A stretch of DNA of 64,000 bases from an uncultured Nitrospirales bacterium (GCA_964609965.1 CAZSTS010000003.1:67260-131259), one strand, 5' to 3'; positions 3,883-56,369 are shown, counted from the first letter of the stretch. The notes: generated from the sequence alone by a model not told the origin. Numbers and translations: made by a program.

Positions 3883-5172
3883 ATGTTTTCATCTGAGAGG
3901 AAAATTTCCGTTATTGGTCTTGGGTATGTTGGTTTTCCAATTGCTGTTTTATTTGGAAAACTTGGAAAGGCCATTGGTTTTGACGTCAATGAAAAACGGA
4001 TAAAAGAGCTTAAGTCAGGGAATGATTGGACGCTAGAAGTTAGCAAAGAAGAATTAACCCAGGCAGATATTCATTACACAAGTGACCCCAAAGATCTTGC
4101 ACAAGCAAATTTTCATATCATTGCTGTTCCTACTCCTATTACAGAAGCTAAACAACCTGATCTTGTTCCCCTTTATTTGGCATCTGATACTGTTGGAAGC
4201 GCTCTTAAAAAAGGTGATATTGTTGTTTATGAATCTACAGTGTATCCTGGAGTGACCGAAGATGAATGTATTCCTATACTCGAAAAGGTTTCAGGACTAA
4301 AAGCTGGTGTTGATTTTAAAGTGGGTTATAGCCCTGAGCGTGTTAATCCAGGGGATAAGGAGCGAACCTTAGATAAAATTACTAAAGTTGTTTCAGGTCA
4401 AGATCCAGAAGCCTTAAAAATTATTTCCGAAACATACGCAAAGATCATCAAAGCACCTATTCACCCTGTTTCTTCTATCAAAGTGGCTGAAGCAGCCAAG
4501 GTTATTGAAAACACTCAAAGAGATCTTAATATTGCTTTGATGAATGAATTAGCTGTTATCTTTGACAAGGTTGGCATTGATACTAATGAGGTTATTGATG
4601 CAGCAGGAACAAAATGGAACTTTCTTCAATTTAGGCCAGGACTTGTTGGCGGACACTGTATTGGTGTTGATCCTTACTATCTTACACATAAAGCAGAAAA
4701 ACTAGGGTATCACCCACAAGTTATTTTAGCGGGGAGACGTATCAATGATGGTATGGGCAAGTTTATTGCGAATCAAACAGTGAAAAACATGATTCAGACT
4801 GGGCACGATATTGTGCATAGTAGCGTTATTGTATTAGGTGTTACATTTAAAGAGAATTGCCCTGATTTAAGAAACTCTAAGGTTGTTGATATTGTTAATG
4901 AGCTAAAGAGTTTTGGTGTTGATGTTCAGATCCACGATCCAGTCGCTGATCCTGCTAATGTAAAAAGAACCTGCGGCGTTGAACTCACAAAATTTGAAGA
5001 TCTTAAACCTGCTTCTGCTATTGTGGTTGCTGTAGCCCATGAGGACTATCAAAAACTCATGCCAGAGGATCTACAAAAGATTTCTGTTCCTCAAGCTGTC
5101 ATTGTTGATGTGAAAAATACATTTCAAAAAAAGAATTTAGAGGAATTAGGCTTTCGCATTTGGCGATTGTAA
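3883..5172 (+). CDS. wbpA: UDP-N-acetyl-D-glucosamine (or -mannosamine) 6-dehydrogenase, nucleotide-sugar dehydrogenase family (WbpA/TviB/WecC-like)
   Basis: 429 aa. N-terminal Rossmann motif ISVIGLGYVGFPIAVLF. Catalytic-Cys region GGHCIGVDPYYL. Central and C-terminal UDPG/MGDP dehydrogenase domains. Confidence 0.8.
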   Translation: MFSSERKISVIGLGYVGFPIAVLFGKLGKAIGFDVNEKRIKELKSGNDWTLEVSKEELTQADIHYTSDPKDLAQANFHIIAVPTPITEAKQPDLVPLYLASDTVGSALKKGDIVVYESTVYPGVTEDECIPILEKVSGLKAGVDFKVGYSPERVNPGDKERTLDKITKVVSGQDPEALKIISETYAKIIKAPIHPVSSIKVAEAAKVIENTQRDLNIALMNELAVIFDKVGIDTNEVIDAAGTKWNFLQFRPGLVGGHCIGVDPYYLTHKAEKLGYHPQVILAGRRINDGMGKFIANQTVKNMIQTGHDIVHSSVIVLGVTFKENCPDLRNSKVVDIVNELKSFGVDVQIHDPVADPANVKRTCGVELTKFEDLKPASAIVVAVAHEDYQKLMPEDLQKISVPQAVIVDVKNTFQKKNLEELGFRIWRL

Positions 5173-5191
5173 TTTCCGTTGTTAATCAAAG

Positions 5192-5206
5192 AACGACAGT
5201 CGACCT
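5192..5206 (+). repeat. intergenic repeat fragment (AACGACAGTCGACCTG) of the CGACAG/GTCGAC family
   Basis: Shares the GTCGACAGTC core with the elements at 8729 and 9181. Confidence 0.4.
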
Positions 5207-5428
5207 GATCAAGGATGATTCTATCCAAAAATTTACACATACCAAAGACATCACCTCCGCGTGCTCACCCGTCCACCTTTATCATTCAGCTAGTATAAGC
5301 CAATAAAAACAATTAGTTAACATGATGTTTTCATGCTCTCATGGGCTCACTTGAATCTTGACAAACAGAAGCCCTATGATAATAACGAGCAAAAATATTA
5401 CTCAAAATACAAACAAGAGAAAAAGATT

Positions 5429-5953
5429 ATGTTAGAATCCATCATCACATCAAAATCTAGGGTTAAGGTCCTCCTTAAGTTTTTTTTGAATCCAGCCATT
5501 AAAGCATATCTTCGTGAGATATCAGCTGAGTTTGGTGATTCGACTAACTCTGTTCGCGTAGAACTCAACAGATTGGTTGGGGCCAAACTTTTAAAGATTC
5601 AAAAGAACGGGCGTAATATTTATTATTCAGCCAACCAGGAACACCCGCTCTATCCAGAGATTAATAAGATTTCCAGAAAAGTCACCGGTGTTGACAAGGT
5701 TTGTGAATGGATTTCCTCTATAGGAAATATGCAGAAGGCCTATCTATCTGGTGATTATGCTCGTGGCATTGATAGTGGTGTTGTTGATGTCATTCTGATT
5801 GGCAATATTGATAAAAAAGCTGTTTTTGAAAAAGTGGGGCGTATTGAAAAATTCATTAATAGAAAGATTCGGCCGCTTGTTCTCACAGAGAAGGAATTTG
5901 AAGCCATGAGCGAGAAATTGCAGAATCAAAAATTATTAAAATTGTGGGGATAA
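5429..5953 (+). CDS. winged-helix DNA-binding protein with C-terminal minimal nucleotidyltransferase-like motif (putative regulator)
   Basis: N-terminal ArsR/MarR-like wHTH (VRVELNRLVGAKLLKIQKNGRNIYYS). C-terminal GDYARGIDSGVVDVILIG resembles the Pol-beta/MNT NTase signature G[SD]xARGxxxxxSD[IV]D. Start chosen at ATG 5429; the track start 5333 is also possible. Confidence 0.45.
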   Translation: MLESIITSKSRVKVLLKFFLNPAIKAYLREISAEFGDSTNSVRVELNRLVGAKLLKIQKNGRNIYYSANQEHPLYPEINKISRKVTGVDKVCEWISSIGNMQKAYLSGDYARGIDSGVVDVILIGNIDKKAVFEKVGRIEKFINRKIRPLVLTEKEFEAMSEKLQNQKLLKLWG

Positions 5954-5956
5954 ATA

Positions 5957-6436
5957 GTGAATAATTGGTATGTGATAAATATCAAACCTCAAAAAGAGAA
6001 TCATGTGACAAAAAGGCTGACTGATGTCGGATTTGAGATGCTAAATCCTAAGGTCAAAGACTTTGCGAGTAAACTCAAACCCATGTTTCCCAATTATATT
6101 TTTACGCGTTGTAATTTTAGTGCCTCTACCAATTATCACATGATTAAATATACACGTGGTGTAAACAAGATTCTTGGAACCTCTCAGACCCCAGTTTCTA
6201 TTTCAGAGGATATTATCAATATTATTAAAGAGCGCTTAAATTCTGATGATGTATTGGAACAAAACAAATTAGCGGTTGGGAGCCAGGTGAAAGTAAAAAA
6301 AGGATTACTCAAAGACCTTATTGCTGTGATTGAAAAGCCTGTTTCTGCTGAGGGTCGGGTAGCTGTCTTATTACGATTGTATGAAAGAGAGATGAAAGCC
6401 AAACTGAGTGTGAAGGATGTTGAGTTAGTGGCCTAG
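5957..6436 (+). CDS. rfaH: RfaH-like NusG paralog (operon-specific transcription antiterminator; NGN + KOW domains)
   Basis: 159 aa. The conserved-residue pattern aligns with E. coli RfaH (WY..I..KP...H...RL, PMFPNYIF, TRGV, KOW GSQVKVKKGLLKDLIAVIE, GRVAVLLRL). A perfect ops element lies 91 nt downstream. Confidence 0.75.
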   Translation: MNNWYVINIKPQKENHVTKRLTDVGFEMLNPKVKDFASKLKPMFPNYIFTRCNFSASTNYHMIKYTRGVNKILGTSQTPVSISEDIINIIKERLNSDDVLEQNKLAVGSQVKVKKGLLKDLIAVIEKPVSAEGRVAVLLRLYEREMKAKLSVKDVELVA

Positions 6437-6462
6437 GCCTTGGGCCTTGAGCCAATGTTTTA
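6425..6462 (+). terminator. GC-rich palindromic hairpin (GGCCTAGGCCTTGGGCCT) plus TTTT after the rfaH-like gene; possible partial terminator
   Basis: Palindromes seen in sequence, with a short T-run after them. Confidence 0.3.
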
Positions 6463-6526
6463 GAAATTTAGTGAATAGAAAAACACATAACTGCTTAATT
6501 TTAAAGGCGTAAGTAAAAACGTCAAT

Positions 6527-6538
6527 GGCGGTAGCGTG
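6527..6538 (+). promoter_or_regulatory. ops element (GGCGGTAGCGTG), RfaH recruitment site in the leader of the downstream polysaccharide operon
   Basis: Exact 12/12 match to the E. coli ops consensus GGCGGTAGnnTG. It sits on the non-template strand, in a 189-nt untranslated gap between the rfaH-like gene and the wbpB-like gene. Confidence 0.65.
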
Positions 6539-6545
6539 TTTGGAT

Positions 6546-6604
6546 TAGCTAACGGCCGACAGCCCACTGCTAACAGCCAAAATTTGGCTGTCAGTTGTTA
6601 GTAG
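6546..6604 (+). repeat. JUMPstart-like intergenic repeat module (TAGCTAACGGCCGACAGCC...CAGCCAAAATTTGGCTG hairpin)
   Basis: Shares a consensus with the gaps at 7577, 8729 and 9181. Contains a perfect 17-nt palindrome at 6574-6590. Confidence 0.55.
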
Positions 6605-6625
6605 TAAACTTGAAAGGACAAATAC

Positions 6626-7576
6626 ATGAAAAAAGTAGCATTAGTAGGCTGTGGTCGTATTTCAAAACGTCACATTGAAGCAATAAAGGACTGTTCAAAT
6701 CTTAAAATTTCCAGTGTTTGTGATATTGATGTGAACAAAGGCCAGCCCATTTCAATGGAATTAGATGTGCCTTTTGTCAAAGATTATAAAGAAATCACAA
6801 ATGCAGATATTATTTCAATACTCACTCCGTCTGGATTGCATCCCAAGCACGCCATTGAAGTAGCTGAGAACACGGACGCAAAATACATCGTTATAGAAAA
6901 ACCTATTTCACTCACGCTGCGTGAGGCTTATGAGCTTTATCATCGTGTAGATAAGGCTGGTAAAGTCTTGCTCCCTGTTTTTCAAAATAGGTATAACCCT
7001 TTAGTTGATTACATCAAAAAACTTATAGACACAGGAAAGCTCGGTCGTGTGTATCAGTTTATTTCAGATGTGTTGTGGAATCGAAATGATGAGTATTTTA
7101 ACATTGGTTGGCATGGCACAGCTACTTTAGATGGCGGTGTGCTTTACACACAGGCCAGTCATTATGTAGATATGGTTCATTATTTTTTTGGAGAGGTTGA
7201 AGAAGCTCATGGTATTGGCAGTGATTTTAGAGGATTTGATGTTTACGATTCTGTATCTGCCGTATTAAAGTTCCAGAATGGAGTGCATGGCAGTATCAAT
7301 TGTACAGTCAACGCTTTTGGAGAAAACTATTGTACAGAGTTTACGCTCATTGCAGAAAAAGGAACAATTAGATTATCTGGAACTAATCTAAACTCAATAG
7401 CTTATTGGAAGGTGGATGGGATCAAAAAACCAGATATGGAATTTCACCTAGATCATGTGTATGGAAATGGTCACAATACACTTTATAAATACATAGAAGA
7501 AGAAAAATGGGATATGTTCCCAACTAAAGACGATGTGTTATCTGGGATTCGTCTCATGGAAAAAATAAGTTATTAA
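6626..7576 (+). CDS. wbpB: Gfo/Idh/MocA oxidoreductase, UDP-N-acetyl-2-amino-2-deoxyglucuronate 3-dehydrogenase (WbpB-like)
   Basis: 316 aa. N-terminal Rossmann motif VALVGCGRISKRH. EKP motif. Gfo/Idh/MocA C-terminal domain. Same length as WbpB, and its position in the pathway fits. Confidence 0.75.
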   Translation: MKKVALVGCGRISKRHIEAIKDCSNLKISSVCDIDVNKGQPISMELDVPFVKDYKEITNADIISILTPSGLHPKHAIEVAENTDAKYIVIEKPISLTLREAYELYHRVDKAGKVLLPVFQNRYNPLVDYIKKLIDTGKLGRVYQFISDVLWNRNDEYFNIGWHGTATLDGGVLYTQASHYVDMVHYFFGEVEEAHGIGSDFRGFDVYDSVSAVLKFQNGVHGSINCTVNAFGENYCTEFTLIAEKGTIRLSGTNLNSIAYWKVDGIKKPDMEFHLDHVYGNGHNTLYKYIEEEKWDMFPTKDDVLSGIRLMEKISY

Positions 7577-7650
7577 TAGCTGACGGCTGACTGCAAACAG
7601 TCTACAGCCAGAATTCTGGCTGTTAGCTGTGAGCTGTAGGCTGTTGACAG
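7577..7650 (+). repeat. JUMPstart-like intergenic repeat module (TAGCTGACGGCTGACTGC...CAGCCAGAATTCTGGCTG...TAGCTGTGAGCTGTAGGCTGT)
   Basis: Contains a perfect 18-nt palindrome at 7605-7622 and a TAGCTGTRAGCT motif. Confidence 0.55.
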
Positions 7651-7653
7651 TTT

Positions 7654-8733
7654 ATGAAATTCGTAGATCTTAACAAACAATATCAAGCTTATAAAACAGA
7701 AATTGATGCAGCAATAGCTGAAACTATTGATAAAACAGCTTTTATTAATGGCCCTGCTGTTAAGGAATTAGAAAATGACTTAGCAGCTTATGCGGGTGTG
7801 AAAAATGCTGTGGCCTGTAGTTCAGGAACAGATGCTTTGCTTCTTGCTATGATGGCACTCGATGTTAAATCGGATGATGAGATTATTGTGCCTACATTTT
7901 CTTTTATAGCCACAGCTAGCATGATTCCAATTTTAAAGGCTAAACCTATCTTTGTTGATGTTGAGCCAATGACTTTCAATATCGATCCAGAAAAGATTGA
8001 AGAGAAGATTACTTCTAAAACAGTCGGCATTATTGGTGTGTCAATGTATGGCCAATGCTCTGATTATGACAGGATCAATGAGATTGCGGATAAGCACGAC
8101 TTATGGGTGATCGAAGATGGCGCTCAGTCATTTGGTGCTACATACAAGGGTAAAAAATCTTGTTCCATGACGACCATGTCTACGACAAGTTTTTTTCCAG
8201 CAAAGCCACTTGGTTGCTATGGTGATGGCGGTGCGATTTTTACAAATGATGATAGTCTGGCCCAGTCTCTGATGATTTTAAGAAATCATGGACAGGCAAA
8301 GAGATATCATCATGATATTATTGGTTTAAATGGACGAATGGATACGCTTCAGGCGGCTATTTTAAGAGTCAAATTAAGACATTTTGATGAAGAAATTAAA
8401 CTGAGGAACAAGGCTGCCGCGCTTTACACGGAGTTTTTACATAACTTTGTAGAAACCCCAGAAGTGAAATCAGAGAATTACTCTTCTTGGGCACAATATA
8501 CAATTAAAGCGGAAAAGAGAGATTCTTTACGACAGATTTTAAGCGATGCAGGCATACCCAGTTCTGTTCATTATCCCTTGCCTCTGAGTGAGCAGAAAGC
8601 GTTTTCTTGTTATAAGAATGGTGAAACATTTCCTGTAGCAACACAGTTATGTAGTGAGGTGATGAGTTTGCCCATGCACGCTTTTATTACCGAAGAAGAA
8701 ATACAGACAGTTTGTAAAGCCATTAAGGGCTAA
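7654..8733 (+). CDS. wbpE: DegT/DnrJ/EryC1 PLP-dependent aminotransferase (WbpE-like UDP-2-acetamido-2-deoxy-3-oxo-glucuronate aminotransferase)
   Basis: 359 aa. DegT-family fold. Lysine region SFFPAKPLGCYGDGGAIFTND. Confidence 0.75.
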   Translation: MKFVDLNKQYQAYKTEIDAAIAETIDKTAFINGPAVKELENDLAAYAGVKNAVACSSGTDALLLAMMALDVKSDDEIIVPTFSFIATASMIPILKAKPIFVDVEPMTFNIDPEKIEEKITSKTVGIIGVSMYGQCSDYDRINEIADKHDLWVIEDGAQSFGATYKGKKSCSMTTMSTTSFFPAKPLGCYGDGGAIFTNDDSLAQSLMILRNHGQAKRYHHDIIGLNGRMDTLQAAILRVKLRHFDEEIKLRNKAAALYTEFLHNFVETPEVKSENYSSWAQYTIKAEKRDSLRQILSDAGIPSSVHYPLPLSEQKAFSCYKNGETFPVATQLCSEVMSLPMHAFITEEEIQTVCKAIKG

Positions 8734-8802
8734 CGGTCGACAGTCAACAGCCAACTGCTGATGGCCAGAAAGATCAATCGTTTGCAGTTAGCTGTAAGCT
8801 AA
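8729..8802 (+). repeat. JUMPstart-like intergenic repeat module (GCTAACGGTCGACAGTCAACAGCC...TAGCTGTAAGCT)
   Basis: Shares a consensus with the other gap elements. Flanks the four-helix-bundle gene. Confidence 0.55.
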
Positions 8803-8809
8803 ACAAATT

Positions 8810-9172
8810 ATGTTTCAAGCAAAATATGAAAAACTGGATGTCTGGCAAGAATCTATAGTTTTAACAGAAGATATTTATAAACTTTTACAGAGCTTTCCAA
8901 AATCTGAATTGTTTGGAATGATATCTCAGCTTAAAAGATGTTCTGTTTCTATTCCATCAAATATTGCAGAAGGTTCTTTAAGAGGCTCAGACAAAGAATT
9001 TATCAGATTTTTATACATTGCATTAGGTTCTATTGGAGAACTACATACGCAATTAATATTATCAGAGAAATTAGGATACATAAAAAGTAATACATTCGAC
9101 ATAAGTAGAATACACTCTCTAAGAAAGAAGTTGTATTCGCTTATTTCATCCATCAGAAAAAATTTGAGCTAA
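8810..9172 (+). CDS. four-helix-bundle protein (23S rRNA intervening-sequence protein family, TIGR02436-like)
   Basis: 120 aa. Hallmark N-terminus (YEKLDVWQESIVLTEDIYKLLQSFPKSELFGMISQLKRCSVSIPSNIAEGS). Confidence 0.75.
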   Translation: MFQAKYEKLDVWQESIVLTEDIYKLLQSFPKSELFGMISQLKRCSVSIPSNIAEGSLRGSDKEFIRFLYIALGSIGELHTQLILSEKLGYIKSNTFDISRIHSLRKKLYSLISSIRKNLS

Positions 9173-9180
9173 TGATCTAT

Positions 9181-9214
9181 GGCTGTAAGCTGTGGGCTGT
9201 CGACTGTAAGCTAT
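9181..9214 (+). repeat. JUMPstart-like intergenic repeat module (GGCTGTAAGCTGTGGGCTGTCGACTGTAAGCT)
   Basis: GCTGTAAGCT occurs twice, plus the GTCGAC core. Confidence 0.5.
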
Positions 9215-9219
9215 AAAAT

Positions 9220-9708
9220 ATGAAATATTTTATTCATGAATCATCATATGTAGACGAAGGCGCTGAAATAGGTGAAGGAACTAAGGTTTGGCACTTTACC
9301 CATGTGATGGGCGGAGCGAAAATAGGTAAAAATTGTGTGCTTGGTCAAAATGTTAATGTGAGTAGAAAAGTAAAGATAGGAAATAATGTGAAGATACAAA
9401 ACAATGTATCTCTCTATGATGGAGTGATTATTGAAGATGGTGTGTTTTGTGGGCCATCATGTGTTTTTACAAATGTATTTAATCCTCGAGCTACGATTGA
9501 ACGAAAAGAAGAATTCATGGCAACTTTAATTAAAGAAGGGGCTACCATTGGAGCCAATGCCACGATTGTATGTGGTGTCACACTTGGTAAATACTGTTTT
9601 ATTGGTGCTGGCGCAGTGGTGACAAAAGATGTGCCTGATTATGCGCTTGTGTATGGCAATCCTGCTACGCAGCATGGCAAAATGGATGAAGAAGGGCGTA
9701 AGGCATAG
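9220..9708 (+). CDS. wbpD: hexapeptide-repeat sugar N-acetyltransferase (WbpD-like, UDP-2-acetamido-3-amino-2,3-dideoxy-glucuronate N-acetyltransferase)
   Basis: 162 aa left-handed beta-helix ([31 protein letters not shown]). Confidence 0.7.
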
Positions 9709-11309: not shown

Positions 11310-12416
11310 ATGAAAAAAATAGTCACAATTGTTGGAGCAAGACCCCAGTTTATAAAAGCAGCAGCTGTATCGCGTGCTCTTCAAGAACAAAAGGGGCAGC
11401 TTGTTGAGGTGCTTGTCCATACAGGGCAACATTACGATGATAACATGTCTCAGGTATTCTTTGATGAAATGAGAATTCCTAAGCCTGATTATCATTTAGA
11501 AGTGGGTTCAGGACCTCACGGGCAAATGACAGGAAAAATGTTAATCAAAATAGAGGAATTGTTGCTTTCAGAAAAACCAGATTACGTGCTTGTTTATGGC
11601 GACACAAATTCAACTCTAGCAGGGGCTTTGGCAGCTGTTAAACTGCACATTCCTGTAGCCCATGTAGAAGCTGGCTTGCGGAGTTTTAATAGAAAAATGC
11701 CCGAGGAGCATAATCGTGTTCTGACAGATCATGTTTCTGACTTTCTTTTTTGTCCTACTGAAACAGCTGTGAATAATTTAGTAAAGGAAGGCTTTTCAAT
11801 AAACCAGCGACATAATTCACAACCTTTGGTTGTGAATTGTGGTGACGTCATGTACGATGCCTTTTTGTTTTATAGTGAATTATCTGCCCAGAAAAGCAAG
11901 GTTCTTAATGATTTGGAGCTCAAAGATAAAGATTTTGTTCTCTGTACCATCCATCGTGCTGAAAATACAGATGATCCAAAAAGACTAAAGAATATTCTTT
12001 CTTTTCTTGAAGAAATCTCTCAGGATACGACGGTTGTGTTGCCATTACATCCTAGGACAGCTAAGATATTAGAAAAAAACTGTCAGTTGTCAGTTTTCAG
12101 TTGTCAGTTAAAAATTATAGATCCTGTAAGTTATTTCGACATGGTTGAGCTTCTCAAGCAGTGTCGTCTTGTTATGACTGATTCAGGGGGGCTTCAAAAA
12201 GAAGCTTTTTATGCTAAGGCTCCTTGTGTGACTATGCGCGATGAAACCGAATGGGTGGAAACTGTTAAAGGGGGGTACAATCTTGTTGTGGGTGCTGATA
12301 AAAAAGCAATCATCTCTGGTTTTGAAAAAATGCTAGATAGTAAAGCCGATTATAGTCGTGATCTCTATGGGGATGGCGCTGCTTCCCAGAAAATAGTCAA
12401 AGCCTTTGTTTCTTAG
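11310..12416 (+). CDS. wbpI: UDP-N-acetylglucosamine 2-epimerase family, non-hydrolysing (WbpI/WecB-like)
   Basis: 368 aa. IVTIVGARPQFIKAAAV N-terminus, HTGQHYD and HVEAGLRS motifs. Contains an internal heptanucleotide tandem repeat at 12081-12108. Confidence 0.8.
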   Translation: MKKIVTIVGARPQFIKAAAVSRALQEQKGQLVEVLVHTGQHYDDNMSQVFFDEMRIPKPDYHLEVGSGPHGQMTGKMLIKIEELLLSEKPDYVLVYGDTNSTLAGALAAVKLHIPVAHVEAGLRSFNRKMPEEHNRVLTDHVSDFLFCPTETAVNNLVKEGFSINQRHNSQPLVVNCGDVMYDAFLFYSELSAQKSKVLNDLELKDKDFVLCTIHRAENTDDPKRLKNILSFLEEISQDTTVVLPLHPRTAKILEKNCQLSVFSCQLKIIDPVSYFDMVELLKQCRLVMTDSGGLQKEAFYAKAPCVTMRDETEWVETVKGGYNLVVGADKKAIISGFEKMLDSKADYSRDLYGDGAASQKIVKAFVS

Positions 12417-13414: not shown

Positions 13415-14513
13415 AATTCCCCTTATAAAACCCTACATCACAAAAGAGGTTAAAGATAAAGTTCTCGAAGTCCTTGATAGTGGCTATTTAACCGAAGGGC
13501 CTGTTACGTTTGAACTAGAACAGCAGTGTCGTGATTATATTGGGTGTGAGCATGCCATTGCACTAACCTCTTGTACAACAGGTTTAGAGCTGGCGCTGCG
13601 AGCTCTTGGAATTTCTGCAGGTGATGAGGTTATTGTTCCTGATTACACATATCCAGCAACGGCAACTGTGGTGAATATTGTAGGGGCCACAGCTGTTATT
13701 GTCGCTATTGATCCAAAGACCATGCTCATTGATTATGAGGCTATCGATAAGGCGATCACTGAAAAGACTAAGGCTATCATTCCTGTTTCATTATTTGGCA
13801 ATCCCTTGGATTATGACAAATTGGACTCAATCAAGAATAAGCACGGGATTAAAATTATTGAAGACGCTGCTTGTTCTATTGGTGCCAGTTTTCATGATAG
13901 GAAAGTAGGTCTTCAAGCAGATGTATCTGTTTTTAGCTTTCACCCTCGCAAATTTATCACAACAGGTGAAGGCGGTATGGTCACAACAAACAATGAAGAT
14001 TGGGCTTCTTGGATGAATTCTTACAAACACTTTGGGATGGCTAAGAGCGATACACGACAGGAAACAGTGTTTGAGCGCGTTGGGACTAATTACAAGCTTT
14101 CAAATTTACAGGCTGCGGTTGGAGTTGTCCAGATGACTCATATTGATGAACTTCTGGCAAAACGCTGCCAACTAGCAGAAAATTATAGGCGATTACTCAA
14201 AGATGAACCCAAAGTAACTATTCCAGAAACAACGGCAAAGGGGCTTCATTCCTATCAATCTTTTTGTGTTTTTGTTAAAAATCGCGACAATGTCATGAAA
14301 AGGATGCGTGAAAAAGACATTGAAGTACAGATAGGAACATATGCGCTTCATAAACACAAAGCCTTTAATGATAATCCTTTTGTGCGTATTGTGGGTGATA
14401 TGAGTGGTAGTGATTACGCATTTAAAAACAGTTTAACTCTTCCTTTATTCCATGACATGACGGATGAAGAACAACGATGTGTTGTGGAGGAACTAAAGAT
14501 ATGTGTGGCATAG
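13407..14513 (+). CDS. DegT/DnrJ/EryC1 PLP-dependent sugar aminotransferase
   Basis: DegT fold. Start at ATG 13407 (MYKIPLIKPYI). Confidence 0.75.
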   Translation: MYKIPLIKPYITKEVKDKVLEVLDSGYLTEGPVTFELEQQCRDYIGCEHAIALTSCTTGLELALRALGISAGDEVIVPDYTYPATATVVNIVGATAVIVAIDPKTMLIDYEAIDKAITEKTKAIIPVSLFGNPLDYDKLDSIKNKHGIKIIEDAACSIGASFHDRKVGLQADVSVFSFHPRKFITTGEGGMVTTNNEDWASWMNSYKHFGMAKSDTRQETVFERVGTNYKLSNLQAAVGVVQMTHIDELLAKRCQLAENYRRLLKDEPKVTIPETTAKGLHSYQSFCVFVKNRDNVMKRMREKDIEVQIGTYALHKHKAFNDNPFVRIVGDMSGSDYAFKNSLTLPLFHDMTDEEQRCVVEELKICVA

Positions 14514-18846: not shown

Positions 18847-20325
18847 ATGACAGGTAGAAGAGTCATAGCTAAAAATACGATTTATAATCTTTTGGCGAGC
18901 GCTGTTTCGTATCCAGCGACAATCGTTATGACGATTGTTATGTCGCGAACACTCGCTCCCCAGAACTATGGGATTTGGTCTTTGTGCCTGGTTTACGGGA
19001 GTTTATCCCTAAGATTGGCTACAGCTGGTTTGTTGCCAGGGTGTGCGACCTACATGATGAAGGAGTTGTCTGTTGGGGGAGAAAAATCTCCTTTGCTTTT
19101 TTCGAACTTTATTGCCCTTGAAGCAGCTCTTATCTTTTTTGGTTCCATTATTTCTGTTTTGTGTGTTGGTTTTTTTTACAGTGATGCCTATCTGCTTTCG
19201 GCTCTCAAGATTGCTGTCCTTTATAATGTGATTCTTTCACTGAATAGCATATTCAACTATGTGTATCAGGCTCATGATGACATGAGGTCACGGTTTTTTA
19301 TGACGATCCTGACTGTTGGTGTGAATCTGACTAATCTTGTTATTTGGGCTATCTTTTTTCATGGTGTTCGCAGCTTATTGGTCATGAGTAGTTGTGTTTA
19401 TCTTTTTATTTGCACAACGCAATTTTTCTATGTTCAGAAAAAGTATAGGCTGTGGAAACCAGTCACTATAAAAATCAAGCATTGGTTTGGTTTTATCAAA
19501 AAGTCATTCTTTTTTGCTGTAAACTCGCAATTGCTGCCACTCTTTTTGTCAGTAGATGTTCTCATGCTGTCATGGCTTTCTACGACAGTGGAAATTGGGT
19601 TGTACCGTATTTCTTTCACCTATTTGACAATAGCCGCCGCTCTTCCTGCAGCTATGGGATGGGCTCTGTTTCCAATGTTAACGCGCCTGCAAAGAAATGG
19701 CACAGGGAACGTAGAGGCTGTGAGACACTATTTTCCTGTGGTCAAGGTTCATCTCTGTCTTGGAATACTCATTTCTCTTGGCTATTTCTCGTTTGCAGAC
19801 ATCTTTATCCCGTTTTTTTACGGAGAAGACTATCAGATGTCGGCCACTTTGCTTAAGGTTTTAAGTGTTTCTGTTTTCTTATCATTCATCTCAGCATCGT
19901 TTGCTGGTTATTTGAATACAGGAAATAGAGAGAAATTATCGAGTCTGGCTTTGGGGATGGGAGTGGTTTTAAATATCTTGCTAAATATTATTTTGATCCC
20001 AACACATGGAGCTATGGGAGCCGCGATTGCGACAGTCGCATCAGAATTGCTCCTCTGTGTTGTTTATGGATATGTTTTTTCCAGAGAGATTATTTCATGG
20101 AGAGAAGGGTGGATGAAGTTGACATTGGTGAGTGGTGCTTTCATGCTTCTCTTGGGTTGGATTGTGGTTTTTGTTGCAAAGGTTTCAATTATTTTGGGCT
20201 TTCTCGTTGCTATGGCAGGATCTCCTCTCATTATTCTTGTATCAAAGATCTACCCACAAGAATCTGTAAGTATATTCAAAAGTTTTTTAATAGAGATAAA
20301 AGGTTTATTACGATTAAGTCGGTAA
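18847..20325 (+). CDS. wzx: Wzx-type polysaccharide flippase (MOP superfamily) #1
   Basis: 492 aa, about 12-14 TM segments, polysaccharide-biosynthesis-protein family architecture. Confidence 0.7.
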   Translation: MTGRRVIAKNTIYNLLASAVSYPATIVMTIVMSRTLAPQNYGIWSLCLVYGSLSLRLATAGLLPGCATYMMKELSVGGEKSPLLFSNFIALEAALIFFGSIISVLCVGFFYSDAYLLSALKIAVLYNVILSLNSIFNYVYQAHDDMRSRFFMTILTVGVNLTNLVIWAIFFHGVRSLLVMSSCVYLFICTTQFFYVQKKYRLWKPVTIKIKHWFGFIKKSFFFAVNSQLLPLFLSVDVLMLSWLSTTVEIGLYRISFTYLTIAAALPAAMGWALFPMLTRLQRNGTGNVEAVRHYFPVVKVHLCLGILISLGYFSFADIFIPFFYGEDYQMSATLLKVLSVSVFLSFISASFAGYLNTGNREKLSSLALGMGVVLNILLNIILIPTHGAMGAAIATVASELLLCVVYGYVFSREIISWREGWMKLTLVSGAFMLLLGWIVVFVAKVSIILGFLVAMAGSPLIILVSKIYPQESVSIFKSFLIEIKGLLRLSR

Positions 20326-50400: not shown

Positions 50401-51426
50401 ATGAAGGCAATTCGAATACATGAGCACGGTGATGCTAAGGTTCTCAAAATCGATGACATTAAAGAGCCGCAACCAGGTCCTCAAGAGGTAAGGGTTAAAA
50501 TAAAAGCTTCAGCTTTAAACCATATGGATCTTTGGGTCAGAAATGGAATGCCAGGGATTGGGAAGATGCCTCTTACTTTGGGCTGTGATGGTGCTGGTAT
50601 AATAGAAAGCGTTGGTTCTGAAGTTAAAGATCTTCAAAAAGGAGATCGAGTTGTTGTTTACCCTGTTCTCAGCTGTGGTGTTTGCTCGTTTTGTTTATCA
50701 GGATTACAAAATCATTGTAAAGAGATGCAGCTTTTTGGAGAACATGTGAATGGCATGCACGCAGAAATAGTATCTGTGTCACAAAATAACGTTATTAAAT
50801 TAGACAAACGCATTTCATTTGAAGAGGCGGCTGCTTTTCCTTTGGTTTTTCTCACTGCTTGGCACATGCTTGTTTATAATGGACAAGTAAAGCCAAAGAA
50901 TACTGTTCTCATTCTTGGGGCTGGAAGTGGTGTGGGGAGCGCTGCTATTCAAATTGCTAAACATCATGGCGCGACAGTTATTGCTACTGCTGGATCAGAA
51001 AAAAAACTCGAAAAGGCACGAGAGCTTGGCGCTGATTTTCTCATCCATCATTATCAAGACAGTATTTCAGAACAAGTCAAAGAGATCACAAATAGAAAAG
51101 GTGTCGATATTGTTGTAGAACATGTTGGGCTAAAAGTTTGGTCAGAATGTCTTAAATCATTGAGCTGGAGTGGACGGCTAATTACCTGTGGTGCGACCAC
51201 TGGGCCAAAGGTTCAAATGGATTTGCGGCATCTTTTTATTAAACAGCAATCAATAATAGGATCAACAATGGGATCTCTTCCTGAAATGAAAGCTATTCAT
51301 GAATTAGTTGCTAAGGGGAGTTTTAAACCGGTTATTGCTAAGGCTTTCCCTTGTACAGATGTTCAACAGGCCCATGAGTTTCTGGAGAAATCAGAGCAAT
51401 TTGGGAAAGTTATTATTACGTGGTGA
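50401..51426 (+). CDS. zinc-binding alcohol dehydrogenase / quinone oxidoreductase family (MDR)
   Basis: GCDGAGIIESVG, LGAGSGVGSAAIQIA Rossmann motif. Confidence 0.8.
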   Translation: MKAIRIHEHGDAKVLKIDDIKEPQPGPQEVRVKIKASALNHMDLWVRNGMPGIGKMPLTLGCDGAGIIESVGSEVKDLQKGDRVVVYPVLSCGVCSFCLSGLQNHCKEMQLFGEHVNGMHAEIVSVSQNNVIKLDKRISFEEAAAFPLVFLTAWHMLVYNGQVKPKNTVLILGAGSGVGSAAIQIAKHHGATVIATAGSEKKLEKARELGADFLIHHYQDSISEQVKEITNRKGVDIVVEHVGLKVWSECLKSLSWSGRLITCGATTGPKVQMDLRHLFIKQQSIIGSTMGSLPEMKAIHELVAKGSFKPVIAKAFPCTDVQQAHEFLEKSEQFGKVIITW

Positions 51427-51468
51427 ATCGTGGATCGTGGGTCGTGAATTGTCGCTTGTTGCTTGTTG
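51427..51468 (+). repeat. six degenerate tandem heptamers (ATCGTGG ATCGTGG GTCGTGA ATTGTCG CTTGTTG CTTGTTG)
   Basis: Seen in sequence, immediately after the ADH stop. Confidence 0.5.
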
Positions 51469-51495
51469 TAGGGGCACAGCGTGCTATACCCCTAC
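51468..51495 (+). terminator. GTAGGGG...CCCCTAC hairpin (same arm sequence as the element at 712-772)
   Basis: 7-bp GC stem. No T-tract. Confidence 0.35.
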
Positions 51496-51532
51496 AAGAT
51501 CATAATTCATAATCTTTAGCATTGACTTTAAG

Positions 51533-53146: not shown

Positions 53147-53265
53147 TCTTTCGCCATAGTTTTAGATCTCGTGTTTCCGAGTCCTTGACAGTTATATCAC
53201 GTCGTGTCATGAATTCGTAAATCGTGGATAGTGTTTTGTAATTTAATTATTTTAGGTCCGGCTTC

Positions 53266-54977: not shown

Positions 54978-55146
54978 CAAAAACGGTTTTACAGAAATTT
55001 TGGGACTTGCATTCCTTATAGGCCTGCATTATTGATTTCTGATTAATTACACCCTGTTAGGGGAGAGTTTTTTAATAATTTATTAAGTCTTTTAACTGCG
55101 TACAGCGTACGAAGTACAACGTACAGCGAAAAACAAGGAGAAGAAC

Positions 55147-56341: not shown

Positions 56342-56369
56342 AAAGTCAAAGGTCGAAGGTCGAAGGTCA
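56342..56369 (+). repeat. four tandem heptamers AAGTCAA AGGTCGA AGGTCGA AGGTCAA directly after the tuf stop
   Basis: Seen in sequence. Confidence 0.5.

Follow-up and report, generated by a model that had tools for sequence, protein, structure and literature searches.

Tandem heptanucleotide repeats between bacterial genes include the short tandemly repeated repetitive sequences (STRRs), which have been known since 1990, and the role of these abundant intergenic heptamers is a long-standing puzzle. Another old puzzle, treated apart from the first, is the role of the very large PF05635 or 23S rRNA intervening sequence protein (S23p) family and of the rRNA intervening sequences (IVSs); S23p-bearing IVSs of the 23S rRNA gene occur in Coxiella, Leptospira, Brucella and Xanthomonas. 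Both come together in the stretch of DNA described here, a window of 64,000 nt (one strand, 38.7% GC) from an uncultured Nitrospirales bacterium, in which four consecutive intercistronic gaps of a surface-glycan operon carry arrays of a degenerate 7-nt unit in inverted pairs, termed modules A, B and C, the last of which brackets a PF05635 gene.

In the Coxiella IVS, the S23p open reading frame (ORF) lies in the loop of a stem made by 28-bp terminal inverted repeats, the stem is cut by RNase III, and two to three tandem GACAGAT heptamers, variable among strains, are located just before the S23p start codon (PMC4990558). The Xanthomonas S23p is a homopentameric toroid, and transposition has been proposed as the origin of IVSs (PMC4990558). 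A transcribed (ATCTTTC)n array of H. influenzae forms one arm of an imperfect mRNA hairpin cleaved by RNase III (PMC12721329), and the over-representation of heptamers among bacterial simple sequence repeats (SSRs) has been documented together with a polymerase-slippage rationale (PMC4692102, PMC4679880). Taken separately, heptamer repeats and IVS elements were already known, as were the heptamers of the Coxiella IVS; in the literature searched, neither a general link of PF05635 genes to short-period arrays nor IVS-like cassettes in operon gaps were reported.

Anatomy of the repeat modules

A preliminary description of the window, made from the sequence alone, had attributed common motifs to five consecutive gaps (numbered 1 to 5 here). 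Gaps 2-5 (6546-6610, 7577-7649, 8729-8800 and 9173-9212) indeed hold one real, non-chance repeat family, for which all 64 kb were examined. GCTRACGGYYGAC has exactly three copies without mismatch, at 6548, 7579 and 8729; TAGCTGTRAGCT stands at 7624 and 8789 and, with one mismatch, at 9180 (three matches versus 0.40 expected); and the two-unit pattern GYYNACAGYYNACAG, allowing one mismatch at most, has 14 matches versus 0.66 expected, every one of them inside gaps 2-5. Gap 1 does not belong to the family: 5192-5206 is matched by neither the pattern nor the arm profile described below, and the whole gap of 5173-5332 lacks a period-7 signal.

The modules are tandem 7-nt arrays. The six main arms share a single consensus in which each arm consists of about five degenerate heptanucleotide units, G-C-Y-N-A-C-A. 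The units stand head to tail in three or more copies, which is the hallmark of heptamer repeats, and TRF assigns period 7 at 7619-7644, in agreement with self-match scans. Conservation within the unit is very uneven, from 1.8 bits at position 1 down to 0.25 bits at position 4 (30 units). A profile built from the six aligned arms and run over the window with filters off retrieved seven arms (Table 1), and nothing else scored below E ~0.9; within the window, the GCYNACA family is thereby confined to 6546-9212.

In gaps 2 and 3 an arm is followed directly by its reverse complement, giving the ORF-less modules A and B. Their centres are the two palindromes quoted in the preliminary description, both of which are present and perfect: CAGCCAAAATTTGGCTG at 6574-6590 in module A, and the 20-nt (A)CAGCCAGAATTCTGGCTG(T) at 7603-7622 in module B, which begins 1 nt past the stop codon of the wbpB-like gene. 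The 7-nt periodicity, the inverted relation of gaps 4 and 5 around the gene between them, and the exact operon polarity suppressor (ops) element at 6527-6538 are absent from that description.

The passenger-gene cassette

The small gene between gaps 4 and 5 encodes a four-helix-bundle protein of family PF05635 that matches the Xanthomonas structure PDB 2GSC (E 5.5e-25), deposited with five identical chains, and that has 5879 homologues, the nearest non-self one being 58% identical. The ORF is bracketed by an inverted repeat of 30-39 nt, of which the 30-nt pair 8729-8758 and 9182-9211 is 77% complementary, with its halves 423 nt apart. This pair ranks first among the inverted pairs of the region, and the bracket widens to about 8729-8776 and 9173-9212 when the arms are aligned with a one-unit gap. 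At its inner ends (…GGCCAGAAAGATCA … TGATCTATGGCTGT…) the cassette is similar in sequence to the middle of module B (…ACAGCCAGAA|TTCTGGCTGT…), suggesting that the ORF sits in the apical loop of a module. In the predicted fold of the 511-nt cassette (8715-9225), the long-range stem closes both the minimum free energy (MFE) and the centroid structure (z = -4.65). As part of the best explanation of the locus, gap 4, the ORF and gap 5 are thus regarded as one cassette with the ORF in the stem loop, and gaps 2 and 3 as ORF-less hairpins of the same kind. The cassette is located between the wbpE-like and wbpD-like genes and not within a 23S rRNA gene.

Short-period arrays around PF05635 genes across bacteria

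The same architecture recurs around PF05635 genes across phyla. Nineteen genes were sampled blind to repeats, namely the gene of the window, eight metagenomic homologues on long contigs and ten plasmid-borne genes with taxonomic spread; a repeat counted as an array when its period was 4-9 (7 in most, 8 in some) and it lay no more than 130 nt from a gene end, and gene ends of the same loci were used as controls. Arrays were present at 30 of 38 PF05635 ends versus 22 of 214 control ends (Fisher p = 8e-18), which ties the two old puzzles tightly together in this sample; 18 of the 19 genes had an array at one end at least and 12 at both. In 17 of the 19 the two flanks were significantly related, 13 being inverted and four direct, and at nine loci the flank-to-flank complementarity of the four-helix-bundle genes exceeded that of 111 control genes (Mann-Whitney p = 3e-5).

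A true 23S IVS displays these arrays as well. Locus L147, from an Azospirillum lipoferum replicon, is a 23S rRNA gene beyond doubt (Rfam LSU, 2540 bits); the S23p ORF inside it is flanked on either side by heptad arrays (1436-1470 and 1870-1906) in inverted orientation (score 47). Six of the eight closest homologues reside in polysaccharide clusters, co-directional with their neighbours. Other four-helix-bundle genes are wedged, together with flanking arrays, into the cas10-cmr3 junction of Picosynechococcus and the cas6-cas4 junction of Pseudanabaena, or, on the opposite strand, into the nrdB-nrdA junction of Nostoc edaphicum, and a further one belongs to a hemE operon context. Glycan and CRISPR-Cas operons, an nrd operon and a true 23S IVS all share this architecture.

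The units vary by genome and include GTGANNN, TAATTCG, GGGAGTA, CTGCCYT and 8-mers. The GCTGTTA family of the window is also that of Pseudanabaena, where it extends over several consecutive gaps in both orientations, and the PF05635 genes found on plasmids are concentrated in Nostoc and Calothrix, classic heptamer-repeat genomes. Some unit types, namely GTGRNNN, GCTGTNN/NNACAGC, CTGCCYT and GGGAGTA, recur across unrelated phyla, which hints at a shared mechanistic preference.

In the reverse direction, a metagenome scan for four RCTGTNN units returned at least 120 loci on contigs with a GC fraction of 0.21-0.74, and most of the matches fall outside long ORFs. Among the 120 array loci listed, the family hidden Markov model identified four PF05635 genes, all of which lie 0-74 nt from the array.

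Two side observations were made in these loci. Genes for PDDEXK_3 proteins (PF13366), likewise small and placed between glycan genes, are also bracketed by inverted short-period repeats (L133 7601-7963; L140 3384-3773), and in L133 they are found inside tandem units of about 190 nt, each with inverted heptad arrays. In L049, AGCCTAA/AGCCTAC arrays (~1180-1260 and 2140-2165) reach the 5' end of a gene resembling that of GDP-mannose 4,6-dehydratase, beside a four-helix-bundle gene, and apparently continue within the dehydratase-like gene.

Setting of the modules in the window

The genes around the modules are all on the plus strand (Table 1), and the glycan cluster runs on from 9708 to about 49.7 kb. 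The operon is headed by a gene for a NusG paralog, whose matches in the genome collection are only 22-32% identical; the 206-aa product encoded just upstream may be its partner or regulator. The locus was found identically in several metagenomes, in one of them on a 271-kb scaffold; no difference separates the six copies obtained from other samples, while a strain variant differs by a single nucleotide polymorphism in 12.5 kb. The RpoB of the organism is 82-87% identical to that of metagenome-assembled genomes labelled "Deltaproteobacteria bacterium" and about 68% identical to that of Myxococcales.

Table 1. Modules, signals and neighbouring genes of the glycan operon (positions in the window).
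Feature	Position	Strand	Remarks
UDP-sugar dehydrogenase gene (wbpA of the preliminary description)	3883-5172	+	
206-aa protein gene	5333-5953	+	no Pfam match; 3 nt upstream of NusG paralog gene
NusG paralog gene	5957-6436	+	PF02357
ops element GGCGGTAGCGTG	6527-6538	+	exact 12-mer; 9 nt upstream of module A; downstream of NusG paralog gene
Module A, ORF-less	6546-6610	+	left arm 6546-6582 (five GCYNACA units), inverted right arm 6583-6610; profile 35.2 + 18.8 bits; hairpin in MFE structure
WbpB-like oxidoreductase gene	6626-7576	+	
Module B, ORF-less	7577-7649	+	left arm 7577-7613, right arm 7614-7649; profile 30.9 + 34.6 bits
WbpE-like aminotransferase gene	7654-8733	+	
Module C outer left arm	8729-8776	+	profile 30.6 bits; overlaps wbpE-like stop codon (8731-8733)
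Module C inner inverted arm GCAGTTAGCTGTAAGCT	8774-8800	-	profile 13.2 bits, E 0.008; local hairpin with 8745-8758 possible
Passenger gene	8810-9172	+	PF05635 four-helix-bundle protein (S23p), 120 aa, intact; PF05635 E 8.7e-36
Module C outer right arm	9173-9212	-	GGCTGTA AGCTGTG GGCTGTC GACTGTA AGC; profile 34.5 bits; ends 8 nt before wbpD-like start codon
WbpD-like acetyltransferase gene	9220-9708	+	
Seven profile arms	6546-6582+, 6583-6610-, 7577-7613+, 7614-7649-, 8735-8770+, 8774-8800-, 9178-9212-		

Period-7 arrays are not restricted to the modules. Among 22 intergenic gaps of at least 30 nt, eight contained a period-7 array, versus a mean of 0.06 (maximum 1) in shuffles and 0.14 expected for equal-sized coding chunks, while each of the other periods from 4 to 12 occurred in 0 or 1 gaps only. 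Arrays with other units follow an alcohol-dehydrogenase gene and a GGDEF gene; the latter is flanked at 51423-51450 and 53205-53235 by arrays sharing the unit GTGRATC in direct orientation. The tuf gene has unrelated units on its two sides, CGTACAR upstream and GGTCRAA downstream (55098-55128 and 56345-56368), and a GTGGATA array fills the rpoB-rpoC spacer (L009 ~19407-19451). Short-period arrays are therefore a general property of this genome, and the GCYNACA family, as far as the 64 kb extend, is a local one. The preliminary description had stated that finding the element irrespective of context would speak against its proposal; such independence holds for the arrays as a class, which also accompany tuf, rpoB-rpoC and the GGDEF gene, and not for the GCYNACA family with its four consecutive gaps in 64 kb.

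A further period-7 array (TGTCAGT x4, 12081-12109) lies inside the ORF (11310-12416) of a WbpI-like UDP-2,3-diacetamido-glucuronate 2-epimerase. This protein aligns to PDB 8SXV over the array segment without real length change, so the array there does not represent an insertion. Another small GC-rich element, TGTAGGGGC…GCCCCTACA, produces a hairpin in each of two intergenic gaps (711-773 and 51467-51497) and has one 9-mer copy in a coding region (13679-13687), which amounts to four matches versus 0.19 expected.

Folding and the proposed role in the transcript

The explanation favoured here, to which about an even chance is given, is that the modules are IVS-type inverted-heptad stem elements in a glycan operon controlled by ops and a NusG paralog, and that they fold within the transcript, probably as substrates of RNase III. 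The arms would pair in the polycistronic transcript to produce imperfect double-stranded stems, and RNase III may cut these as it cuts the IVS stems and the heptad hairpin of Haemophilus hmw, the two experimental precedents on which RNA processing is proposed by analogy. Such cuts would divide the mRNA into segments, and the passenger ORF would be looped out or removed, with the consequence that the insertion is tolerated. Antitermination dependent on ops would carry RNA polymerase over the untranslated structured spacers, and the operon could thereby tolerate them. The passenger gene would most likely have entered a pre-existing array, because its flanking unit matches that of the modules without an ORF nearby and does not travel with the gene. 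RNA hairpins and elements like the repetitive extragenic palindromic (REP) sequences, which the preliminary description had listed as fallback ideas, come close to this explanation. If correct, it offers a reason why long glycan operons under antitermination control can tolerate passenger genes.

Module B folds stably by itself, with a predicted MFE of -38.5 kcal/mol (z = -4.85). Several results weigh against the proposed stems. Modules A and C alone are not significantly stabler than shuffles (z = -1.05, and -1.44 for the local hairpin of C), gap 5 alone does not fold (z = -0.20), and complementarity between arms is no more than about 77%. Among the mismatches between arms, G:U on the sense strand is not in excess over A:C (19 versus 22, p = 0.73), and most, 83 of 124, are transversions at variable unit positions; there is thus no sign of selection on fine pairing beyond the central palindromes. 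Moreover, the recovered strain copies are all identical and offer no covariation or copy-number variation among them, and four of the 19 sampled cassettes have direct flanking arrays, which are unable to form a closing stem.

Other assignments of the spacers were considered and rejected. An intrinsic terminator does not apply, since no GC-rich hairpin with a U-tract and no terminator-like site was found, whether within the modules or along the sense strand of 5100-9300, and promoter-like sites are no more frequent in the same region than expected by chance. Integron attC sites were dropped on inspection, as GTTRRRY/RYYYAAC cores and an integrase are both missing and the genes are those of an ordinary pathway, not cassettes. 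At the gathering threshold, Rfam reports tRNAs only over the window, and even at E<=10 no family explains the modules in 5100-9300 or 6470-6630. Only about 23 of 56 genes here have a Shine-Dalgarno sequence, so its absence after arrays is uninformative.

A wider proposal, put forward speculatively and with considerable doubt, is that PF05635 genes and short-period arrays constitute one widespread genetic system, in which the pentameric protein would recognise phased heptads of either RNA or DNA, while the gene would enter arrays in operons and rRNA genes across bacterial phyla, or generate them, with cyanobacterial STRRs, other heptamer repeats and rRNA IVSs as its facets.

The model offered for the two old puzzles, linked as they are in this sample, is that heptad stems may serve as RNase III substrates, as candidate binding sites of a pentameric protein, or as both.

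Alternative explanations

Neutral slippage combined with an insertion preference is a live alternative, and so is a phased protein-binding array. According to the former, which is a serious possibility although on the unlikely side, the heptamer arrays are SSRs without function, generated by slippage in unconstrained spacers as has been proposed for STRRs and long SSRs, selfish PF05635 genes land or are retained there, and the complementarity is a by-product of array splitting or duplication. The occurrence of arrays with unrelated units in many contexts including housekeeping operons, the lack of a G:U bias between arms, the existence of both direct and inverted flanking configurations, and the finding of a PF05635 gene in just four of the 120 array loci listed all agree with it, as does the documented over-representation of heptamers with its slippage rationale (PMC4692102, PMC4679880). 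On the other hand, a slipped repeat should decay uniformly, unlike the uneven conservation of the unit; inverted pairs outnumber direct ones by 13 to 4; the palindromes in the middle of modules A and B contain no mismatch over 17-20 nt; and the copy number is the same in all strain copies sampled.

In the second live alternative, which appears decidedly unlikely, the heptads are phased candidate sites to which an oligomeric protein would bind, perhaps the homopentameric four-helix-bundle protein itself; such nucleic-acid binding would bring about autoregulation or target the gene to arrays. A conserved core with variable spacer positions in a fixed 7-nt phase would suit such sites, and the roughly five units per arm can be set beside the five identical chains of 2GSC, the closest solved homologue, and the homopentameric toroid (PMC4990558). 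The tight linkage of PF05635 genes to arrays across phyla and the concentration of plasmid-borne members in the heptamer-rich Nostoc and Calothrix point in the same direction. However, the units differ widely by genome (GTGANNN, GCTGTNN, CTGCCYT, GGGAGTA, 8-mers) though the proteins are 40-58% identical, array length ranges from three to more than 15 units, and most arrays among the 120 loci listed have no PF05635 gene nearby.

The modules might also be the terminal inverted repeats of a DNA mobile element, with A and B as ORF-less derivatives resembling miniature inverted-repeat transposable elements and with a role in transposition only, which is considered very unlikely. An inverted-repeat bracket round a small gene wedged among the genes of unrelated operons, ORF-less copies adjoining the cassette and the transposition origin proposed for IVSs (PMC4990558) are what such an element would display; yet the cassette encodes no transposase or recombinase, the repeats of some cassettes are direct, no target-site duplication was identified, and the repeats are genome-specific, since they match the ORF-less arrays of their own locality and do not move together with the gene.

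Finally, there is scarcely any chance that the modules are JUMPstart/ops-type signals repeated in order to reload or reinforce an RfaH-like factor, or as pause sites: despite the NusG paralog gene and the exact ops at the head of the operon, and despite the TAGCTGTAA that TAGCTGTAAGCT has in common with the 5' half of the E. coli JUMPstart, no module holds ops, the JUMPstart covariance model gives no match on gaps 3-5 or the modules even at E<=10, and like arrays flank PF05635 genes in CRISPR-Cas, nrd and rRNA contexts without ops.

The details are as follows. The exact ops has a single match in the window and is the real antitermination signal of the operon, not a member of the repeat family. 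The Rfam JUMPstart model (RF01707) reaches 18.4 bits at 6511-6538 versus a gathering threshold of 35, aligned only through the 12 nt of ops. The ops consensus GGCGGTAGNNTG is absent from the sense strand of the modules, and its sole near-match (7598-7609) is on the minus strand with one mismatch, at chance level. JUMPstart is a single-copy leader element, and the modules occupy four successive intercistronic gaps. The E. coli JUMPstart 5' half was given correctly in the preliminary description, as the 30-mer GGTAGCTGTAAAGCCAGGGGCGGTAGCGTG is exact in 5376 of 5426 E. coli genomes; the idea stated there of an ops-associated JUMPstart iterated between genes is not supported. In the window, TAGCTGTAA is simply two heptad units, located more than 1 kb from ops and missing immediately upstream of it. 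As a side observation, the E. coli 30-mer contains GGTAGC twice, 21 nt (3 x 7) apart. For annotation, GC-rich intercistronic repeats of this sort in glycan loci should not be called additional JUMPstart or ops elements.

Comparison with known systems

JUMPstart/ops (RF01707) and the modules have in common the surface-glycan operon, here with a genuine ops and a NusG paralog gene; the modules differ in lacking ops and any match to the model, and in being intercistronic instead of in the leader. Enterobacterial REP sequences and bacterial interspersed mosaic elements are likewise imperfect palindromes between the genes of operons, able to fold into RNA hairpins without being terminators. REPs, however, are near-identical and scattered in hundreds of copies and contain no 7-nt tandem units, whereas the family described here was seen in only four adjacent gaps of the 64 kb.

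The STRRs of cyanobacteria, the Xanthomonas GGGAATC and the Beggiatoaceae TAACTGA repeats are, like the arrays described here, tandem 7-nt units that are strongly intergenic and often abut start or stop codons, and these and other intergenic heptamers also combine a conserved core with variable positions and sometimes form inverted pairs. Different from STRRs, the arrays of the window are short (about five units), degenerate and arranged in arm pairs, and several unit families coexist in one genome; the PF05635 link seen here is not mentioned in the heptamer-repeat literature searched.

The 5'-UTR (untranslated region) hairpin of H. influenzae hmw1A shares with the hairpins proposed for the modules a transcribed heptamer array as the arm of a long imperfect hairpin, and is itself an experimentally shown RNase III substrate that affects expression. 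Its array, located in a 5'-UTR, has more than 10 perfect units and is phase-variable; the arm opposite is G-rich and non-repetitive, and there is no passenger gene.

In architecture, the modules match the S23p-bearing 23S IVSs. The elements of the window are different in that they lie between protein-coding genes of an mRNA operon and not in helix 25 or 45 of the 23S rRNA, and their stem is about 77% complementary versus the near-perfect 28 bp of the described one; excision by RNase III would follow here by analogy. In both, the PF05635 ORF lies in the loop of a terminal inverted-repeat stem (predicted from 8729-8758 and 9182-9211 in the window), heptamers stand beside the ORF (GACAGAT in Coxiella, CTGTCNT in Azospirillum and GACAGYC in the window), and ORF-less IVS hairpins exist in other bacteria, as modules A and B do here.

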